Of a stretch of DNA of 14,273 nucleotides, positions 3,958-14,273 are shown piece by piece. Numbering within the stretch: the stretch's first letter is position 1; each line of letters starts with the position of its first letter. The stretch is from a candidate division WOR-3 bacterium (GTDB lineage Bacteria; Hydrothermota; Hydrothermia; LBFQ01; DSFT01): the NCBI GenBank assembly GCA_965649115.1, contig CBFGJN010000049.1, forward strand, positions 1-14,273, written 5' to 3'. The notes under the pieces were generated by a model. It was not told where the DNA came from. It saw only the letters and a program-made list of their open reading frames with translations, and did no database searches. Both the position numbers and the translations under genes were made by a program.

Positions 3958-3964
3958 GGCTCGG

Positions 3965-3976
3965 AAATTTTAAAGC
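3965..3976 (-). promoter_or_regulatory. GCTTTAAAATTT putative -10 promoter element for nuoC
   Basis: Exact copy of the recurring 12-mer; TAAAAT core lies 9 nt before the ATG. Confidence 0.5.
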
Positions 3977-4352: not shown

Positions 4353-5237
4353 GTGATTTATTATTATCTATCAAAAATTCATAGATTTTTTACAAAGCCT
4401 CAAAAACTAAATAAAAAAACTATTGCTATTGGTAATTTTTCCTTTGGAGGTTCAGGGAAAACACCATTTGTAATTTTTCTTTCAAATTATTTAAAACATT
4501 ACTATAAAATTGTAATTTTAAGTAGGGGCTATAAAAGAAAAGATAAAAATATTCAGATTATAAGAGATAGTAATATTGATGTCAAAATTGTTGGTGAAGA
4601 GCCTTATTTGATTCATTTGAAAACAGGTTTAAAAGTTATTGTTTATAAAGATAGACTTTTAGCTTCAAAATTAGCTATTGAATTATATAATCCTCATATT
4701 TTAATTTATGATGATGCACTTCAATACTGGAAAATAGATTTTGATTATAAAATTCTATTATTAGATTATAGATATTTAAAAGGTTGGAATGTTTTTCCAT
4801 TTGGTCTATTTAGAGAACCAATTAGTGAAATTAAGAGAATTGATTTTGTTATAGTTAATTTTAAGTTTGAAGAACCATTTGAAATTTTTGAGTTTATGGG
4901 AAAACCTGCAAGTTTTATAACATATAAAATTGTAAATAGACCTGATTTTAAAGATGTTGTTGGATTTTGTGGAATAGCAGATAGCAAAAGTTTTTATAAT
5001 TTGTTAAAAAAATTTTATAATGTTATCTATTTTAAATCGTTTGAAGACCACCACTATTATAGTGATAAGGAATTAAAATTATTAAGAAGTTTTAAACTTC
5101 CAATAATTACTACGCTTAAAGACTATGTAAAAATTCAAAATAAAGAAGGAATATATTATTTGGATATTGAAGTTGAAATGAAAGATTTTAATAGATTTGT
5201 TGATTTTTTAGGATTTCCTTTAAGCTTTAAAATTTGA
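4353..5237 (+). CDS. lpxK: Tetraacyldisaccharide 4'-kinase
   Basis: IGNFSFGGSGKTP P-loop, ILSRGYKR, GEEP, DDALQ, PFGLFREP, FCGIA, FEDHHYY and TTLKDYVK; GTG start, short N-terminus. Confidence 0.93.
   Translation: MIYYYLSKIHRFFTKPQKLNKKTIAIGNFSFGGSGKTPFVIFLSNYLKHYYKIVILSRGYKRKDKNIQIIRDSNIDVKIVGEEPYLIHLKTGLKVIVYKDRLLASKLAIELYNPHILIYDDALQYWKIDFDYKILLLDYRYLKGWNVFPFGLFREPISEIKRIDFVIVNFKFEEPFEIFEFMGKPASFITYKIVNRPDFKDVVGFCGIADSKSFYNLLKKFYNVIYFKSFEDHHYYSDKELKLLRSFKLPIITTLKDYVKIQNKEGIYYLDIEVEMKDFNRFVDFLGFPLSFKI
5224..5235 (+). promoter_or_regulatory. GCTTTAAAATTT putative -10 element (leaderless) for thiolase
   Basis: TAAAAT at 5228-5233 lies 6 nt before ATG 5240; no Shine-Dalgarno. Confidence 0.5.
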
Positions 5238-7809: not shown

Positions 7810-7814
7810 CCTGA

Positions 7815-7836
7815 AAATTTTAAAGCTTTAAAATTT
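7815..7836. promoter_or_regulatory. Perfect 22-bp palindrome AAATTTTAAAGCTTTAAAATTT; putative bidirectional promoter
   Basis: Fills most of the 32-bp divergent gap; TAAAAT on each strand lies exactly 7 nt before the respective ATG. Confidence 0.6.
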
Positions 7837-7841
7837 ATAAT

Positions 7842-8624
7842 ATGAAAATTCTTCCAATAGAATTAGCAAAAGCTATTTTAAATCGTGAAACAGGTTTATT
7901 TATTTTTGAAAATTTGAAGAATGAATCAATAAGAGTTTTTTTGATAAATGGTGAAATTGTAAAAATTGACAGTTTATATGGAGAAGGAGAAAGTGAGATA
8001 GCAAGATTATTTTTGTGGGGTGAGGGTTATGTAATTAAAAGACCAATTCCAAAAGAATATGAGAATTTTATTCCTAATAAAAAATATAATCCGAATGGTT
8101 TTTTAAAAATTTTAATTGAAAGCATTAAGAAAGAAATTAAATTGAAAGAATTTGAAATATCAACAAATCAAATAATTTTTTATGGCTTTTTAAGTTTTTT
8201 AAACAACAATGCTCCATTTTTAGTATATAATAAGGATGAATGGATTGGATTTTCAAAAATTGTTGAAAGTCTCTCAAAAAGTATAAAAAATTCAACAGTT
8301 TTAATTTCAAATAAGTACTTGCTGTTCTTCTCAAATGATGTTGATTTTATATTTTCAGAAAATGGTTATATTGATTTTAATAAAGTTGATGAAGAAAATA
8401 TATTTGAACCATTTGATTATAAAGTTTTTGTTTTTGGTCCAGAAGAATATAAAAAGCTTATAATTCCATTTGAAAGAGAACCTTCATATAAAGGCTTATT
8501 TGAAAATTTAAAAATGGATGATTACACTATTGGTTTTTTCTTTAAGAACGATGAAGTTGATATTTTTATTAAAGACTTAAAAGAAGAATTCAAAAACTAT
8601 CCTAATTGTATATTATGGAAGTAG
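7842..8624 (+). CDS. Hypothetical protein with DUF4388/PATAN-like N-terminal domain
   Basis: RETGLFIF...VFLINGEIVKI...GESEIARLFLWGEGY resembles the DUF4388 pattern; the rest is unrecognised. Confidence 0.55.
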   Translation: MKILPIELAKAILNRETGLFIFENLKNESIRVFLINGEIVKIDSLYGEGESEIARLFLWGEGYVIKRPIPKEYENFIPNKKYNPNGFLKILIESIKKEIKLKEFEISTNQIIFYGFLSFLNNNAPFLVYNKDEWIGFSKIVESLSKSIKNSTVLISNKYLLFFSNDVDFIFSENGYIDFNKVDEENIFEPFDYKVFVFGPEEYKKLIIPFEREPSYKGLFENLKMDDYTIGFFFKNDEVDIFIKDLKEEFKNYPNCILWK

Positions 8625-9163
8625 AGGCAAAATTCTTAATTGATAATCCAGATAAATTAGAAAGCTTCTTAAATAATTTTGTAAAACCTATTGAACTTGA
8701 AATTGATGACATTTATTTTGATAATAATCAATTAAATCTCTTAAAAAAGTACAATTGTGCTTTTAGAATTAGAAAAGAAAATGAAAAATTTTACTTTACA
8801 ATAAAAAGGAAACTTCAAGATGATAGTAATTTATTTAAAAGAATTGAAATTGAAAAAGAAATACCAAAAGATATTTATGAAAAGCTTAAAAGAAGTGAAT
8901 TTTATTTTTATTTTGATGACATTGAATTAAAAATTTTTCCAATAATTGAAATTCTTTCAAAAAGAAAATTATATCTAATTGAAAATTTAAAAGTTTCAAT
9001 TGATAAGGTTATTTTTAATGATAGAACAACTATGAATTTTTTAGAAATAGAAGGAAATGAAAATGAGATATTAGAGTTTACCAACAATATAACAAAACAT
9101 TTTAATTTGATTGAATGGAAAATTTCAAAACTTGAAACAGCTTTAAAATTTTGGGACTTATAG
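8615..9163 (+). CDS. CYTH domain protein (class IV adenylate cyclase / triphosphate tunnel metalloenzyme)
   Basis: N-terminal ExExK (MEVEAKF), DIYFD, FRIR, TIK, R.EIE, KR..Y, SIDKV and FLEIE. ATG 8615 preferred over TTG 8606. Confidence 0.9.
   Translation: MEVEAKFLIDNPDKLESFLNNFVKPIELEIDDIYFDNNQLNLLKKYNCAFRIRKENEKFYFTIKRKLQDDSNLFKRIEIEKEIPKDIYEKLKRSEFYFYFDDIELKIFPIIEILSKRKLYLIENLKVSIDKVIFNDRTTMNFLEIEGNENEILEFTNNITKHFNLIEWKISKLETALKFWDL
9140..9151 (+). promoter_or_regulatory. GCTTTAAAATTT putative -10 element for the RT leader/ncRNA
   Basis: Exact 12-mer within the last codons of the CYTH gene; predicts a start near 9156, just before the structured element. Confidence 0.45.
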
Positions 9164-9240
9164 AAGGGGCGAATTTGAATTCTCTATAATCTTTTAACCT
9201 TCTGTGGGTTTAAACCCACAGAGGCGGTCCGCCCCTTCTA
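9161..9240 (+). ncRNA. Candidate RT-associated structured RNA (nested inverted repeats)
   Basis: Perfect 11-bp IR TAGAAGGGGCG (9161-9171) / CGCCCCTTCTA (9230-9240) enclosing the perfect 22-nt palindrome TCTGTGGGTTTAAACCCACAGA (9201-9222); GC-rich in AT-rich context; ends 6 nt before the RT ATG. Structure is seen; RNA function is inferred. Confidence 0.55.
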
Positions 9241-9246
9241 CATTAA

Positions 9247-10659
9247 ATGAATGATAAAAATTGGGCTTTTTCAAAGGATGACTTATTGGAATTAAAATCA
9301 TTATATGATAAAAAAATTGAAGAAGTAAAGGAATTTAGAACTTATTCCAAACCTCAAAAAAAGTTACTTTCAGATTATCAGAAAATTTGTCAAATTTTGA
9401 AATTTTTAGATGAACTCAAAGAAGAGGAATTTTTAAATAAATTGAATAAAGGAGAATTTAAATTTCAAATTGGAAGAGTTGGATATTTTACGAGTAAGTA
9501 CTTTTTAAAATCAAGGGTAGTTTTGAATTTAATTAGATTAAATAATAATCAGATAGATAAAAAATACATTGAAACTCAAATAGCCTTGAAACTAATTGCC
9601 AACAAGCTAATGAAAAATAAAATCGTTGAAAAGCCAAAAACAAGAAAGTCCGTTATTAGAAACTTAATTGAATTTTTGAGAAAAAACATAAATGAATCCG
9701 AGAATTTTTATCTAATAAGGGCTGATTTCAAAAGTTATACTTTAAATATAAGGAGAAATAAGGTTATAGAAATTTTAAGAAACAAGGATGTTCCTGATTT
9801 TATAATTAAAATGATTAAAGAATTTATAAATTATCCTTCAATTGAATCAAAAATTTTTAAAAACTATCCATTAGCTAAATTCTTTAATGAAATTGGCTAT
9901 CTTAGTGATTATTCTTTGGATGGGGATTATAAATGTATTTTAGGTTATGAAGGTATTTTATCAGGGACACCTTTAAGTAATGTTTTGGGCATGTTATACT
10001 TACAAGATTTTGATAATTTTATTAGTGAAAAGATAGTTTCAAACGGATTTTATGAAAGGTACTTTGATGATTTAATTATAATATCTTCGCCCAATCCAAA
10101 GGAAATTAAAAAACAAATAAACGATTATCTTTCAAATCTATATCAAATAAATAAAAAAGATATTGCAAGGATTTTTGATATTGGAGAAAATGGAAATTTA
10201 GGAAGAGTTCTTGAAAAAGGATTTGAATTCTTGGGATATAAGTTTCAGAAAGAAAATAATAGAATTAAAATTTCAATTAGATATAAAACCTTAAAGAAGT
10301 TTGCTTATAAGTTCATTTACGAACATAGAGTTATAGAAGGAAAGTACATTGAATGTCTGGTGGCTAAAAATTATTACTTGTTCTCTTGGTTAAATAGTTT
10401 TATTTTTATTAATGACCATAAACTTCTTGAAGAAATTTACAAAAAAATAATTCTTCCTAATATTTATTCAACATTAAAAAACTACTTAAAATTCCAAAGG
10501 AAAGATACAAGCGAAGATCATTTAAAAGGATATTTTAAAGAAATAAAAAAATTTTATAAACCTGCTTCAATTTTAAGAATTTTGAGAAAAGGAAATAAAC
10601 AAAAAATTATTGAAAAATTAAAAAATCTAAAAGTTCTAATTGAAGAAATAATTGGGTGA
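9247..10659 (+). CDS. Reverse transcriptase, Drt3a/UG3-like defence-associated RT (stand-alone)
   Basis: YLIRADFKSY (Asp160), GILSGTPLSNVLGMLYL, YERYFDDLIII (YxDD 272-275) and FEFLGYKF. Segments KTRKSVIRNLIEFL and KISIRYKTLKKF recall Drt3a. RT call firm, subfamily by eye only. Confidence 0.85.
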   Translation: MNDKNWAFSKDDLLELKSLYDKKIEEVKEFRTYSKPQKKLLSDYQKICQILKFLDELKEEEFLNKLNKGEFKFQIGRVGYFTSKYFLKSRVVLNLIRLNNNQIDKKYIETQIALKLIANKLMKNKIVEKPKTRKSVIRNLIEFLRKNINESENFYLIRADFKSYTLNIRRNKVIEILRNKDVPDFIIKMIKEFINYPSIESKIFKNYPLAKFFNEIGYLSDYSLDGDYKCILGYEGILSGTPLSNVLGMLYLQDFDNFISEKIVSNGFYERYFDDLIIISSPNPKEIKKQINDYLSNLYQINKKDIARIFDIGENGNLGRVLEKGFEFLGYKFQKENNRIKISIRYKTLKKFAYKFIYEHRVIEGKYIECLVAKNYYLFSWLNSFIFINDHKLLEEIYKKIILPNIYSTLKNYLKFQRKDTSEDHLKGYFKEIKKFYKPASILRILRKGNKQKIIEKLKNLKVLIEEIIG

Positions 10660-10661
10660 AA

Positions 10662-10779
10662 TTTAGAGTAAGAGTTTTGACTTTAAAAAATCCTATATTT
10701 TTAATAGAAACAGCATTTTGGAATTTATTTTTTGAAGTCATTTAACACCATTTACTAAACATAGCAGATTTTCGTTGCT
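10662..10779 (+). ncRNA. Candidate structured RNA or long stem-loop downstream of RT
   Basis: 14-bp stem TGACTTTAAAAAAT (10678-10691) / ATTTTTTGAAGTCA (10727-10740) with one G-U; weaker outer pairing 10662-10671 with 10752-10759; small hairpin 10763-10779. Confidence 0.35.
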
Positions 10780-10788
10780 TTAAAATTT
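10777..10788 (+). promoter_or_regulatory. GCTTTAAAATTT putative -10 element for hsdR
   Basis: Exact 12-mer; TAAAAT core lies 17 nt before ATG 10804. Confidence 0.45.
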
Positions 10789-10803
10789 TAGAACAAATGG
10801 ATT

Positions 10804-13317
10804 ATGCTTAATGAAGCTGATACAAGGGCAAAATTGATAGATGATAAATTAAGGGAAGCTCGTTGGACAGAAAATTTAATATCGCGTGAACTGACTATAA
10901 TGGAAGGTAAAATAATTGATGAATATGGAAATAGAGGGAAAGTATTAAGACCTGATTATATTCTATTTTTAGAGAACTATTTTCCAATAGCTGTTGTAGA
11001 AGCAAAAGCAGAATCAGAAGACCATAGATCTGGGATACAACGGGCAAAAAAATATGCAGAAATTCTTCAAGTACCATTTGCTTATTCAACAAATGGACAC
11101 AAAATTGAGGAATACGATTTTATAAATAAAAAACAAACAACTCTTGATAGATTTCCATCACCTGCTGAATTATGGGAAAGGTATTCTCTTTGGAAATTTG
11201 GAAGAGTTTTACCATTTGATAAGAACAAAAACCCGCTTCTTTATCCTTATAATATCTTTACGAATAAAAAGCCAAGGTATTATCAAATTGCTGCAGTAAG
11301 AAATGTAATTGAAGCATTTTTGAAAGGGCAAAAGCGTATACTACTAACTATGGCTACTGGCACGGGTAAGACGGAAGTTGCTTTTTGGGTAGTGTGGAAG
11401 TTATACAACACGGGTAAGATAAGGAGGGTGCTTTATGTTGCGGATAGAATTATGTTGAGAGATCAAGCTTATAATCGTTTTCAAGCTTTTGAGAGTAGTA
11501 GAGAAATAATTAAGGAAGGAAATGCTCCAAAAATAAGAGATATTTATTTTGCAACATATCAAAGTCTTTACTCTGAAAGAAATGGAAAAAGGCTTTATCA
11601 GGAATATGAGGAGAATTTCTTTGATATGATTATTATTGACGAGTGTCATAGGTCAGGTTATGGAAGGTGGAAGGAAATTCTTGATTATTTTAAAAATGCT
11701 GTTCATTTCGGTATGACCGCAACACCCAAGAGAGATGATAACATAGACACATATGCTTATTTCGGCAAGCCCGTATATGTTTATAGTTTAGGGCAGGGCA
11801 TAGAGGATGGATTTTTAGCCCCTTATAAGATCCACAAAATCTTTACAAACATAGACAAAAATGGTGGTATTTCTCTTAAAGATTTAGCAAGTGAAGGAGC
11901 GGCGATTGAGGTTCCACAAGGTTTAGAGGTAAAGGATTTTTATTCATTGGGAGATTTTGAAAAGGAAATTATACTACCTGATAGAACTGAAATGATGGTC
12001 AAAAAGTTAGCCGAGATATTAAGAATTTACGGACCTACTGAAAAAACGATAGTCTTTTGTGTAACAAAAGAACATGCTTTGGATGTTGTTAAGATATTAC
12101 AAAATGAACTTGGTAGAGATATTGCTTCCTTAGGAATAAATGCTGATGAATTCGTTGTTAGGGTTGTTGATGAGGAACCAAATGCAATAGAACTTGCCCG
12201 AAAAATGGCTGATCCTGAAAGTCGAACGCCAATAATAGCGGTTACAGTTGATCTTTTAAGTACAGGTATTGATATTCCGCCTGTAAAGAACATAGTTATA
12301 ATGAGACCCATTTCTTCCGAGGTTTTGTTTAAGCAAATTATTGGCAGGGGAAGTAGAATAAGCGAAAGTGTTGGTAAGTTCTTTTTTAGAATAATAGATT
12401 TTGTAAATGCTACTAGGCTTTTAGACCCATGGGATATTCCACCACAAGAGTATATCCCCGATACCCCAGAAGGTCCGTTTGATCATTTTATAAGGGGTAA
12501 GGTTGTAGATGAAGAGGATGGGACTCCAATCGCGAACGCGAGGATAACCGCAAAATTTGGGGTAAATATGGTTAAACCGGCAAGGACGGATGAAAATGGT
12601 GAATTTCTCATGGATGGTTGTCCTCGTTCATCTGTAAAGATCAGGGTTGAGGCTGGGGATTATAAAATGAGAGAGGTAAGCGTAAATCCAACCCCTTCAA
12701 AGGATAATGTTTCCGTAGTTATCGAACTAAAAAGGAAAAAACCAAAAGAAGGAAAGATAAGGGTTATGGGAATAGATGTTTATATAGAGGAAGAATTGTA
12801 TGTTGAGGTGGAAGGGGTAAAGTTAAACAGTGCCCAATATATTCAATATGCTAAGGAAAATTTTAGAAAAAAGGTTATAACCTTGGAGGATTTGAGGAAA
12901 ATTTGGATAAATGCGGCGAGTAGGAAAAGGTTTTTGGAGGAATTGAGGAAAAAGAGTATAAATCCAGAATTGATAGGGCAGATTATTAAAAGACCAGATG
13001 CGGATGCTTTTGATGTTATAGCCCATGTGGCCTTTGACGTCCCAATTTTGAGTAGGGATGATAGGGCAGTTGCATTGTTAAACAAAAAATATAATTTTAT
13101 AAATTCCTTTAATGAAACTGCTAGGAATGTTTTGCTTAATCTTATAGAAAAGTATAAACTTGGTGGTGTTGATGAAATTTCAGTTGATGCTCTCAAAACA
13201 CCAGATATTAATAGAAGTGTTGGCGGTTTAAAACAAATAATTAATTCTTTCGGAGGAAAGGAAAATCTTATAAAAACACTTGAAGAATTGATAAAAAGCC
13301 TTTACGATTTAGAGTAG
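10804..13317 (+). CDS. hsdR: Type I restriction enzyme R subunit (EcoAI/EcoEI-like) with inserted beta-sandwich domain
   Basis: NEADTR, PD...VVEAK nuclease motif, STNG, RYYQ, MATGTGKT, DECHR, MTATP, LLSTGID, FKQIIGRGSR, and an EcoEI-type C-terminus (DAFDVIAHVAFD...LSR). Confidence 0.95.
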   Translation: MLNEADTRAKLIDDKLREARWTENLISRELTIMEGKIIDEYGNRGKVLRPDYILFLENYFPIAVVEAKAESEDHRSGIQRAKKYAEILQVPFAYSTNGHKIEEYDFINKKQTTLDRFPSPAELWERYSLWKFGRVLPFDKNKNPLLYPYNIFTNKKPRYYQIAAVRNVIEAFLKGQKRILLTMATGTGKTEVAFWVVWKLYNTGKIRRVLYVADRIMLRDQAYNRFQAFESSREIIKEGNAPKIRDIYFATYQSLYSERNGKRLYQEYEENFFDMIIIDECHRSGYGRWKEILDYFKNAVHFGMTATPKRDDNIDTYAYFGKPVYVYSLGQGIEDGFLAPYKIHKIFTNIDKNGGISLKDLASEGAAIEVPQGLEVKDFYSLGDFEKEIILPDRTEMMVKKLAEILRIYGPTEKTIVFCVTKEHALDVVKILQNELGRDIASLGINADEFVVRVVDEEPNAIELARKMADPESRTPIIAVTVDLLSTGIDIPPVKNIVIMRPISSEVLFKQIIGRGSRISESVGKFFFRIIDFVNATRLLDPWDIPPQEYIPDTPEGPFDHFIRGKVVDEEDGTPIANARITAKFGVNMVKPARTDENGEFLMDGCPRSSVKIRVEAGDYKMREVSVNPTPSKDNVSVVIELKRKKPKEGKIRVMGIDVYIEEELYVEVEGVKLNSAQYIQYAKENFRKKVITLEDLRKIWINAASRKRFLEELRKKSINPELIGQIIKRPDADAFDVIAHVAFDVPILSRDDRAVALLNKKYNFINSFNETARNVLLNLIEKYKLGGVDEISVDALKTPDINRSVGGLKQIINSFGGKENLIKTLEELIKSLYDLE

Positions 13318-13327
13318 TGATTTTAAA

Positions 13328-14273
13328 ATGGATAGACAGACTTTAAAATCAAAATTTAAGCAAGCTTGCGATTTGTTAAGGAATGAAATTGCGTCTATAA
13401 ACTACATTGTTCAGCTATCTTGGATGCTTTTTCTGAAATTATATGATGATTTAGAGGATGAAAAGGAGATAGAAGCTGAATTAAAGGGTAATACATATCA
13501 AAGGAACATTCCTTCGCCATATCGCTGGAAGGATTGGGTTCATAGGGATTGGAGAAGTGAAGAACTTATAAACTTTGTAAATAATGATTTATTTCCTTTC
13601 CTTTCAAGTTTAAATGGAAATGATGAAAAAGCGTTAATATCCAAAATTTTTAGTGGAAGAGAGATTCAAAACTTTTTAAAAGATGGATATAAGTTAAGGG
13701 AAGTTGCATTCCTGCTTGATGAGTTAAAATTTACAAGTCAGGAAGATATTTATCTTATTTCTACACTATACGAGGAGCTTTTACCTGAAATAGGTGAAAT
13801 GGGTAAGTATGCGGGTGAGTATTACACACCAAGGCCTATTATAAGGCTAATGGTAAAAATCGTTAATCCAAAACTTGGCGAAAAGATATTAGACCCTTTT
13901 TTGGGTTCTGCGGGATTTCTTATTGAGAGTTATAGACATATTACAGAAGATAAAATTTTTACAACAAAAGACAAAGAGCTCTTAGATAATATGTTTTATG
14001 GTCAAGAAAAAAAGGATATTCCTTATCTCATAGGAGTAATGAATATTCTTTTGCATAATGTTCCCACAACCCACATTTATAAGGTTGATACATTTGCGGA
14101 AGATATTATGAATGTTTCTGAGAGAAATAAGTTTGATATAATCCTTACAAATCCGCCTTTTGGTGGTAAGTTTGATGAAAGGTATAAAAATAATTTTCCT
14201 ATTAAGAGTTCTGATACAGAACTTGTGGCTTTGCAGTATGTTATGAGGAAGTTGAAGAATGGAGGGAGAGCTG
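13328..14273 (+). CDS. hsdM: Type I R-M N6-adenine methyltransferase M subunit (3' truncated by window end; absent from ORF track)
   Basis: Translated by hand: MDRQTLKSKFKQACDLLR...QLSWMLFLK...YRWKDW...GEYYTPR...ILDPFLGSAGFL (motif I)...FDIILTNPPFGG (motif IV); begins 10 nt after the hsdR stop. Confidence 0.95.
   Translation, partial: MDRQTLKSKFKQACDLLRNEIASINYIVQLSWMLFLKLYDDLEDEKEIEAELKGNTYQRNIPSPYRWKDWVHRDWRSEELINFVNNDLFPFLSSLNGNDEKALISKIFSGREIQNFLKDGYKLREVAFLLDELKFTSQEDIYLISTLYEELLPEIGEMGKYAGEYYTPRPIIRLMVKIVNPKLGEKILDPFLGSAGFLIESYRHITEDKIFTTKDKELLDNMFYGQEKKDIPYLIGVMNILLHNVPTTHIYKVDTFAEDIMNVSERNKFDIILTNPPFGGKFDERYKNNFPIKSSDTELVALQYVMRKLKNGGRA

Follow-up and report, generated by a model that had tools for sequence, protein, structure and literature searches.

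The window is the entire 14,273-base contig CBFGJN010000049.1 from the genome of a candidate division WOR-3 bacterium (1.85 Mb, 27.6% GC, and 94.5% complete). It encodes a 470 amino acid (aa) reverse transcriptase (RT; 9247-10659) preceded by a structured element (9162-9239) that is a candidate non-coding RNA (ncRNA) or 5' leader. The RT gene lies between a CYTH-domain gene (8606-9163) and the type I restriction-modification (R-M) genes hsdR (10804-13317) and hsdM (13328-14272, cut off by the window end), with all of these features on the + strand. Both intergenic gaps beside the RT are short (83 nt upstream and 144 nt downstream), so that no further open reading frame (ORF) flanks it in the window. 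An earlier sequence-only reading of the window had described a 470-aa RT with an intact YFDD motif, a nested hairpin upstream, hsdR-hsdM next in the same orientation, and no room for an intron RNA. Each of these features was recovered, the last from the gap lengths and from an Rfam search without an intron RNA.

The YFDD motif occupies residues 272-275 of the RT (codons 10060-10071), and D160 (the motif A aspartate), D274, and D275 were invariant across 18 family members together with 35 further positions. The ATG at 9247 was supported as the start because an N-terminal W-x-F is conserved in the family. Pfam models did not recognize the protein, including RVT_1, and detected neither a maturase/GIIM nor an endonuclease domain. 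The 13 PADLOC hidden Markov model (HMM) matches to the RT contained no retron RT model and were headed by near-equal weak matches to RT_UG17 (70.5 bits, spanning model positions 89-289 of 429), Drt3a (66.9 bits), and RT_UG4 (65.3 bits), with Drt2 at 45.7 bits and no Drt9 match at E <= 0.01. NCBIfam models gave 65.7 bits for Drt3a against a cut-off of 200 and 51.6 bits for Drt2 against a cut-off of 390. From 5.8 billion proteins, a word-based search retrieved seven relatives, and an exhaustive profile search of 1.84 billion representatives (50% identity) yielded 14 full-length family proteins (E <= 1.3e-114) and three fragments, the next match after the family having an E-value of 8.4e-15. A fused form was not seen, since no family-level match exceeded 533 aa, and a search of the ESM Atlas gave nothing specific for the RT.

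Phylogenetic analysis separated the family from all of the groups retrieved by the search. PADLOC labeled the 68 next-best proteins as Drt2, Drt3a, UG17, and UG4 members, and the full-length labeled neighbors scored 262-570 bits on their own models (UG17 members 318-467 and Drt3a members 262-431). In a tree of 70 rows (IQ-TREE quick search, supported by the Shimodaira-Hasegawa-like approximate likelihood ratio test [SH-aLRT] only), the 18 family members formed one clade with a support of 100 and a stem of 1.24. The UG17, Drt3a, UG4, and Drt2 clades were supported at 98, 93, 100, and 100, respectively, with a backbone among the groups that lacked resolution. The tree covers only the retrieved groups, with the UG26, UG27, UG28, UG38, and UG39 references left out. 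The RT has no additional known domain and its nearest relatives are UG17, UG3, UG4, and UG2, consistent, as judged by profiles, with a class-2 UG/Abi RT as defined by Mestre et al. (2022). On sequence grounds, it represents a separate clade equally distant from these four groups. The likeness to Drt3a proposed by the sequence-only reading is thus a weak one, far below the model cut-off and across a clade boundary. The clade was not found described in literature on UG17, DRT3/Drt3a, DRT11-13, UG40/41/43, and Aquificota RTs, a survey whose scope did not extend to the supplementary tables of the UG/DRT10 papers.

An AlphaFold2 model of the RT displayed a complete RT fold (predicted local distance difference test 87.1 and predicted template modeling score 0.84). 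Its best whole-protein structural matches were the GsI-IIC group II intron RT (Z 22.0), a diversity-generating retroelement RT (Z 21.2), and the G2L4 RT (Z 19.9), followed by the UG types DRT9 (Z 17.3) and DRT2 (Z 15.0) and by retron RTs (Z ~14), and the best Foldseek matches also included the G2L4 RT. Despite this structural resemblance, the locus lacks the intron RNA, maturase, endonuclease, and RVT_1 domains of such elements and sequence profiles favor the UG groups, with Drt2 as the nearest solved structure by sequence profile (E 4.9e-12). The short flanks and the absence of a GIIM domain further distinguish the locus from a group II intron, and the lack of a retron RT model match and of a retron RNA in Rfam distinguishes it from a retron. 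Among the 18 members, the C-terminal tail showed no invariant Tyr, Ser, or Thr that might act as a priming residue.

The nested hairpin upstream of the RT was borne out by folding. Positions 9150-9260 fold at -36.3 kcal/mol (z -4.45) and none of 200 dinucleotide shuffles was as stable. The 78 nt fold consists of a closing stem (9162-9171 paired with 9230-9239), a 5' loop (9172-9198), an inner hairpin (9199-9209 paired with 9214-9224 around the loop 9210-9213) carrying an AGAG motif at 9220-9223, and a linker (9225-9229). The element has a GC content of 0.42 compared to 0.20-0.26 in its flanks; such GC-rich islands are characteristic of structural RNAs in thermophiles with AT-rich genomes. It is unique in its own genome by BLAST and covariance model searches. 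Rfam returned no intron or retron RNA at E <= 1 and only a chance microRNA match, and ARAGORN detected nothing. The element is predicted to exist as RNA.

The same layout was identified in all ten loci for which upstream DNA was available, always 5' of the RT on its strand, so that of the two flanks that the sequence-only reading had put forward for comparison among homologs, the upstream one was conserved and the downstream repeat was not. The relatives with upstream DNA were L010, L011, L012, L014, L015 (with L016/L017), L018, L020, L022, and L024, and L019 carried a partial element at a contig end. Across these loci, from hosts with a GC content of 24% to 57%, the element measured 57-81 nt; its closing stem had 7-17 bp and its inner hairpin 3-11 bp, with a 5' loop of 22-32 nt between them and a short linker leading from the hairpin into the 3' strand. 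Individual folds had mononucleotide-shuffle z values of -1.4 to -7.5, with z <= -3 in eight of the ten. A MAFFT alignment of the ten elements was inconsistent with the structure. In the innermost 7 bp of the closing stem, 7/7 positions pair within a locus and a mean of 3.7/7 pair across loci; the within-locus pairing total was reached by none of 20,000 permutations and each position displayed 2-4 pair types. In the window's subclade (five sequences in a model-fitted alignment), 83.3% of cells pair compared to 76.4% in shuffles (0/500 reaching the observed value) and <= 69.4% in slid controls, and six pairs had changed on both sides. A purine motif beside the inner hairpin was kept amid this divergence, being AGAG in 8/11 elements and GTGA in 3/11. 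The covariance model R1, built from the window's subclade, found the correct places in L018, L011, and L020 at E-values of 1.9-4.3, amid noise.

Two further observations concern the element. A second partial copy, comprising the inner hairpin and GAGAG, is present in L010 (2630-2670) ~60 nt 5' of the full element. A contig from a variant strain covering 9094-9528 differed from the window at nine positions, all at or beyond 9265 within the N-terminal part of the RT coding sequence and none in 9094-9264, which includes the promoter-like motif and the element; this one contig, at a depth of 3, gives no more than a hint that the element is under constraint.

A promoter-like motif, GCTTTAAAATTTT, lies at 9140-9152 in the 3'-terminal part of the CYTH gene. 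The genome holds 122 exact copies compared to two of the reversed control, often preceded by TAT, and a long-ORF start was situated <= 10 nt downstream of 55/117 copies (47%) versus 1% at random places. Some copies are directly 5' of tRNA genes, and the motif is usually followed after 4-8 nt by a start codon or the 5' end of a tRNA. In L012, L014, L015, and L022, the element is likewise preceded by this motif. From this spacing, GCTTTAAAATTTT appears to be promoter-like and to give near-leaderless transcripts, such that transcription should begin a few bases 5' of the closing stem and the RT transcript would then open with the element. A scan with the sigma-70 consensus was uninformative (18 sites versus 12.6 expected) and no terminators were found. 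A second copy of the motif at 10777-10789 (+), 14 nt 5' of the hsdR start, is likely the hsdR promoter. A reading of the resulting 13-nt repeat (9140-9152/10777-10789) as an att site or a target-site duplication was ruled out by the genome-wide abundance of the motif and its proximity to start codons. Further copies in the window are located at 3964-3976 (-), 5224-5236 (+), 7814-7826 (-), and 7825-7837 (+).

Class-2 UG RTs use an adjacent ncRNA with a confined template beside a stem-loop (PMC12632851; 10.64898/2026.05.04.722794). DRT10 has an upstream 137-nt ncRNA with four small stem-loops, protein priming, and an A-B-A' template that follows a stable stem-loop (PMC12632851). Its UG17 RT, encoded with a SLATT gene, makes tandem-repeat cDNA in a telomerase-like manner. 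The present locus resembles DRT10 in its class-2 UG-type RT with RT_UG17 as the top PADLOC match, in a structured element upstream on the same strand, and in a stable stem-loop beside single-stranded segments able to serve as template. It differs in scoring 70.5 bits where full-length UG17 members score 318-467, in the separation of the two clades (supports 98 and 100), in the lack of a SLATT gene at any locus, and in an element of 57-81 nt with one inner hairpin in place of the larger, four-stem-loop DRT10 ncRNA (PMC12632851). In DRT3, which pairs Drt3a (UG3) with a second RT, Drt3b (UG8), an ACACAC loop of DRT3a beside a stem-loop gives a poly-d(TG) product (10.64898/2026.05.04.722794). Drt3a is among the nearest HMM neighbors of the RT and the conserved purine-rich motif beside the stem-loop recalls the conserved ACACAC loop; in contrast, the RT is below the Drt3a cut-off, Drt3b was not found, and the RNA is upstream here and downstream in DRT3. 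ACACAC itself was absent from 9140-9246 and 10660-10803.

The overall arrangement, in which a single RT is paired with a cis-encoded ncRNA and lacks a dedicated effector gene, is closest to DRT2 (UG2 RT with its ncRNA upstream) and DRT9 (UG28 RT), which consist of an RT and an ncRNA with the effector gene absent (PMC9226505; 10.64898/2026.10.08.757509). Unlike these systems, the RT scores 51.6 bits on the Drt2 model with a cut-off of 390 and does not match Drt9, and a U-tract resembling the DRT9 template is not common to the elements, being absent from the L010 and L011 loops. The DRT2 ncRNA is also much larger than the 57-81-nt element. The sequence-only reading had proposed a single-RT, ncRNA-dependent module of an architecture different from DRT3; a single RT, a conserved upstream element, and the separation from DRT3 stood, and the claim of a new architecture did not, because DRT2 and DRT9 precede it. 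What is new is an RT clade with its own small RNA type, within the already established single RT and ncRNA architecture.

The preferred reading, with a probability of roughly 0.6, is of a two-part module in which a class-2 UG/Abi RT of a new clade and its cis-encoded upstream RNA would produce ncRNA-templated complementary DNA (cDNA), with a putative role in defense. A host-type promoter at 9140-9152 would start the transcript a few bases 5' of 9162, as suggested by the genome-wide spacing of the motif. The 5' end of the transcript is predicted to fold into the closing stem, loop, inner hairpin, and purine motif, consistent with the folding results and with conservation through changed stems. 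The same transcript would be translated into the RT from a start 7 nt past the stem. By analogy with DRT2, DRT3a, DRT9, and DRT10, the RT may bind the RNA and copy a short confined segment into cDNA that is probably repetitive, and this cDNA could serve an abortive-infection-type phage defense that, like DRT2 and DRT9, involves no dedicated effector gene. Two candidate templates are the AU-rich 5' loop and the purine motif that follows the inner hairpin on its 3' side. The R-M genes and the downstream stem-loop are outside the module.

Several results weigh against this reading. UG26, UG27, UG28, UG38, and UG39 were excluded only by the absence of HMM matches. The perfect within-locus pairing arises partly by construction since the stems were taken from folds, and the covariance model of the window's subclade recovered only that subclade at significant E-values. 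The AGAG motif may be structural and not a template because it can pair with upstream pyrimidines in several loci. A-B-A' repeats were present in all ten loops with a sum of 45 compared to 40.2 +/- 2.9 in shuffles (P = 0.074), not above the level set by composition. The defense context is weak: type I R-M genes were near only the window's RT and that of L018 (two of ~10 contexts), the other contexts being housekeeping, and the putative anti-phage function is drawn from homology and these R-M neighbors. Finally, the window's subclade has no Shine-Dalgarno sequence and a start codon 2-7 nt past the stem, an arrangement that fits a purely cis-regulatory leader as well.

Such a leader is the alternative that survives best, although it is considered improbable by comparison with the module. 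The upstream structure would be a cis-regulatory or stabilizing 5' leader (acting in autoregulation, as a thermosensor, or in 5'-end protection) and not a template RNA, and the substrates of the RT would be other nucleic acids. The place of the element at the 5' end of the RT's own transcription unit, its close approach to a start without a Shine-Dalgarno in the window's subclade, the ends of a separate ncRNA that could not be demonstrated, and A-B-A' repeats not above chance are all consistent with this explanation. However, in the other subclades 23-77 nt separate the element from the start codon and a distinct Shine-Dalgarno-like stretch follows it, so that start occlusion is not a shared feature. 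Retention of the short purine motif by the inner hairpin while the remainder diverged also argues against a leader, as does the use of an adjacent structured ncRNA as template by all of the nearest characterized relatives, i.e., DRT2, DRT3a, DRT9, and DRT10 (PMC12632851; 10.64898/2026.05.04.722794).

A more specific form of the RT-RNA module can be suggested tentatively, as a thermophile RT that synthesizes repeats without an effector. The AGAG/GTGA motif as template might direct the synthesis of DNA with short pyrimidine repeats, for example poly-d(CT), much as the ACACAC template does in DRT3a. In the same speculative reading, the RNA of ~60-80 nt could be a pared-down telomerase/DRT10 RNA with the closing helix comparable to the core-enclosing helix and the inner hairpin to the template boundary. 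Class-2 UG RTs (DRT2, DRT3a, DRT9, and DRT10) make unusual DNA and have been proposed as bacterial kin of telomerase (PMC12632851), and the clade added here is rare and deeply separate. If active, the RT and its RNA would offer a compact, probably heat-stable system for finding the smallest template-setting RNA features and may become a tool for programmable repeat synthesis. If the purine-template reading is true, the family would be thermostable and smaller than any other natural RT-RNA enzyme known to add repeats. The clade escapes present PADLOC, NCBIfam, and Pfam models or receives scores from them far under threshold.

The distribution of the family bears on whether an RT-RNA pair would act in defense. 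The RT is present as a single copy in its own genome, where a second copy was not found, and it was absent from all 60 related genomes searched, which ranged from the same genus to the same class. A pattern-based scan of one genome per species (185,579 species) identified two loci, L010 and L011, both in Aquificota metagenome-assembled genomes (MAGs). A metagenome scan identified 23 loci, including 13 at the family level (L012-L024) and ten distant RTs, and a viral scan gave no family member and two distant RTs only. Family samples so far are hot-spring and hydrothermal, and the 13 runs listed with the window's DNA, none of them RNA, were labeled as hot-spring metagenomes. Low-depth DNA contigs span CYTH-element-RT and RT-hsdR, with no empty site seen among them. 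Two lineages had damaged RT copies with the upstream element intact in both. In L015-L017 (three assemblies; L015:5940-6010), there was CTG at the start, no in-frame start, and a stop or frameshift near codon 19, and in L022 (1815-3150) the RT was full of frameshifts beyond ~residue 180. The patchy spread and disrupted copies are as expected for a dispensable accessory gene.

No conserved partner gene is present and the neighbors differ in every context examined. Pfam analysis of 20 neighbor ORFs of the relatives revealed neither an RT nor a SLATT protein and included Ham1, pyruvate:ferredoxin oxidoreductase, Nuo subunits, threonyl-tRNA synthetase, metallophosphoesterase, polysaccharide deacetylase, asparaginase, AIR-synthase-like, Fur, and others. 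PADLOC on 17 neighbor ORFs matched only an HsdR fragment (L018) and, weakly, PDC-S10. These results, along with gaps too short for another gene, bear out the absence of an adjacent SLATT or other effector ORF in the sequence-only reading. Its lack of a second RT also held, with no match to Drt3b, Drt8, Drt9, RT_UG38, or Pfam RVT_1 in the window's genome. Drt3b was similarly not found in the two MAGs carrying L010 and L011, and its absence was consistent from the neighbor ORFs of the relatives to these three genomes. SLATT_5 had no match in the window's genome, a weak blank since the control matched in no control genome.

These contexts leave some room, if somewhat less than for a leader, for an RT-RNA pair that is not a defense system and that has another role (DNA repair, like G2L4-type RTs) or is a low-copy selfish retroelement. 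Most contexts consist of housekeeping genes, the G2L4 RT is among the best Foldseek matches, and some class-2 groups, UG4 and UG27, showed no defense enrichment in the analysis of Mestre et al. (PMC9226505). Against this, the sequence-profile neighbors are DRT groups, the gene is single copy per genome with a patchy distribution and decayed copies that fit an accessory, defense-like gene, Rfam detected no intron or retron RNA, and R-M genes adjoin in two contexts. That the RT gene is a remnant of DRT3 or DRT10 after loss of Drt3b or SLATT is very improbable, since its weak top HMM matches to RT_UG17 and Drt3a score far under true members and are offset by a separate clade with a support of 100, ~10 contexts without partner genes, no Drt3b in its own genome or the two MAGs, and intact, conserved catalytic residues.

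Downstream of the RT, an AU-rich inverted repeat (~10678-10740, +) had been taken by the sequence-only reading as a second structured element. The fold of 10655-10810 had a z of -0.75 with 41/200 shuffles equally good, the core (10672-10745) had a z of -1.65 with 12/200 equally good, and relatives carry unrelated DNA 3' of the RT. The stem-loop was rejected as an ncRNA of the system, with a fold within chance and no conservation, and is not counted in the module.

Upstream of the RT, the CYTH-domain gene, identified by Pfam, is a native neighbor. Synteny with two same-genus genomes extends from ~7820 to 9152 and then ends, and the locus 3' of CYTH is considered variable because the downstream content differs in all three genomes. 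A 260-aa ORF of unassigned family and the overlapping CYTH gene (together 7842-9163) are kept as a pair in both of these genomes (L038 and L039), and the CYTH protein had a weak PADLOC HEC-02B match (E 0.006).

The hsdR and hsdM genes, both with Pfam and PADLOC matches, are neighbors with a GC content of 0.31-0.38 compared to 0.23-0.26 for the RT, so that the R-M genes were probably acquired separately; by GC, they look recently acquired. The hsdR of L018 is unrelated to that of the window and is 2.3 kb from its RT. Residues 563-645 of the window's HsdR (12490-12740) encode a CarboxypepD_reg-like beta-sandwich (PF13620, E 4e-10), a seemingly unusual insert that sits between the HsdR helicase part and EcoEI_R_C.

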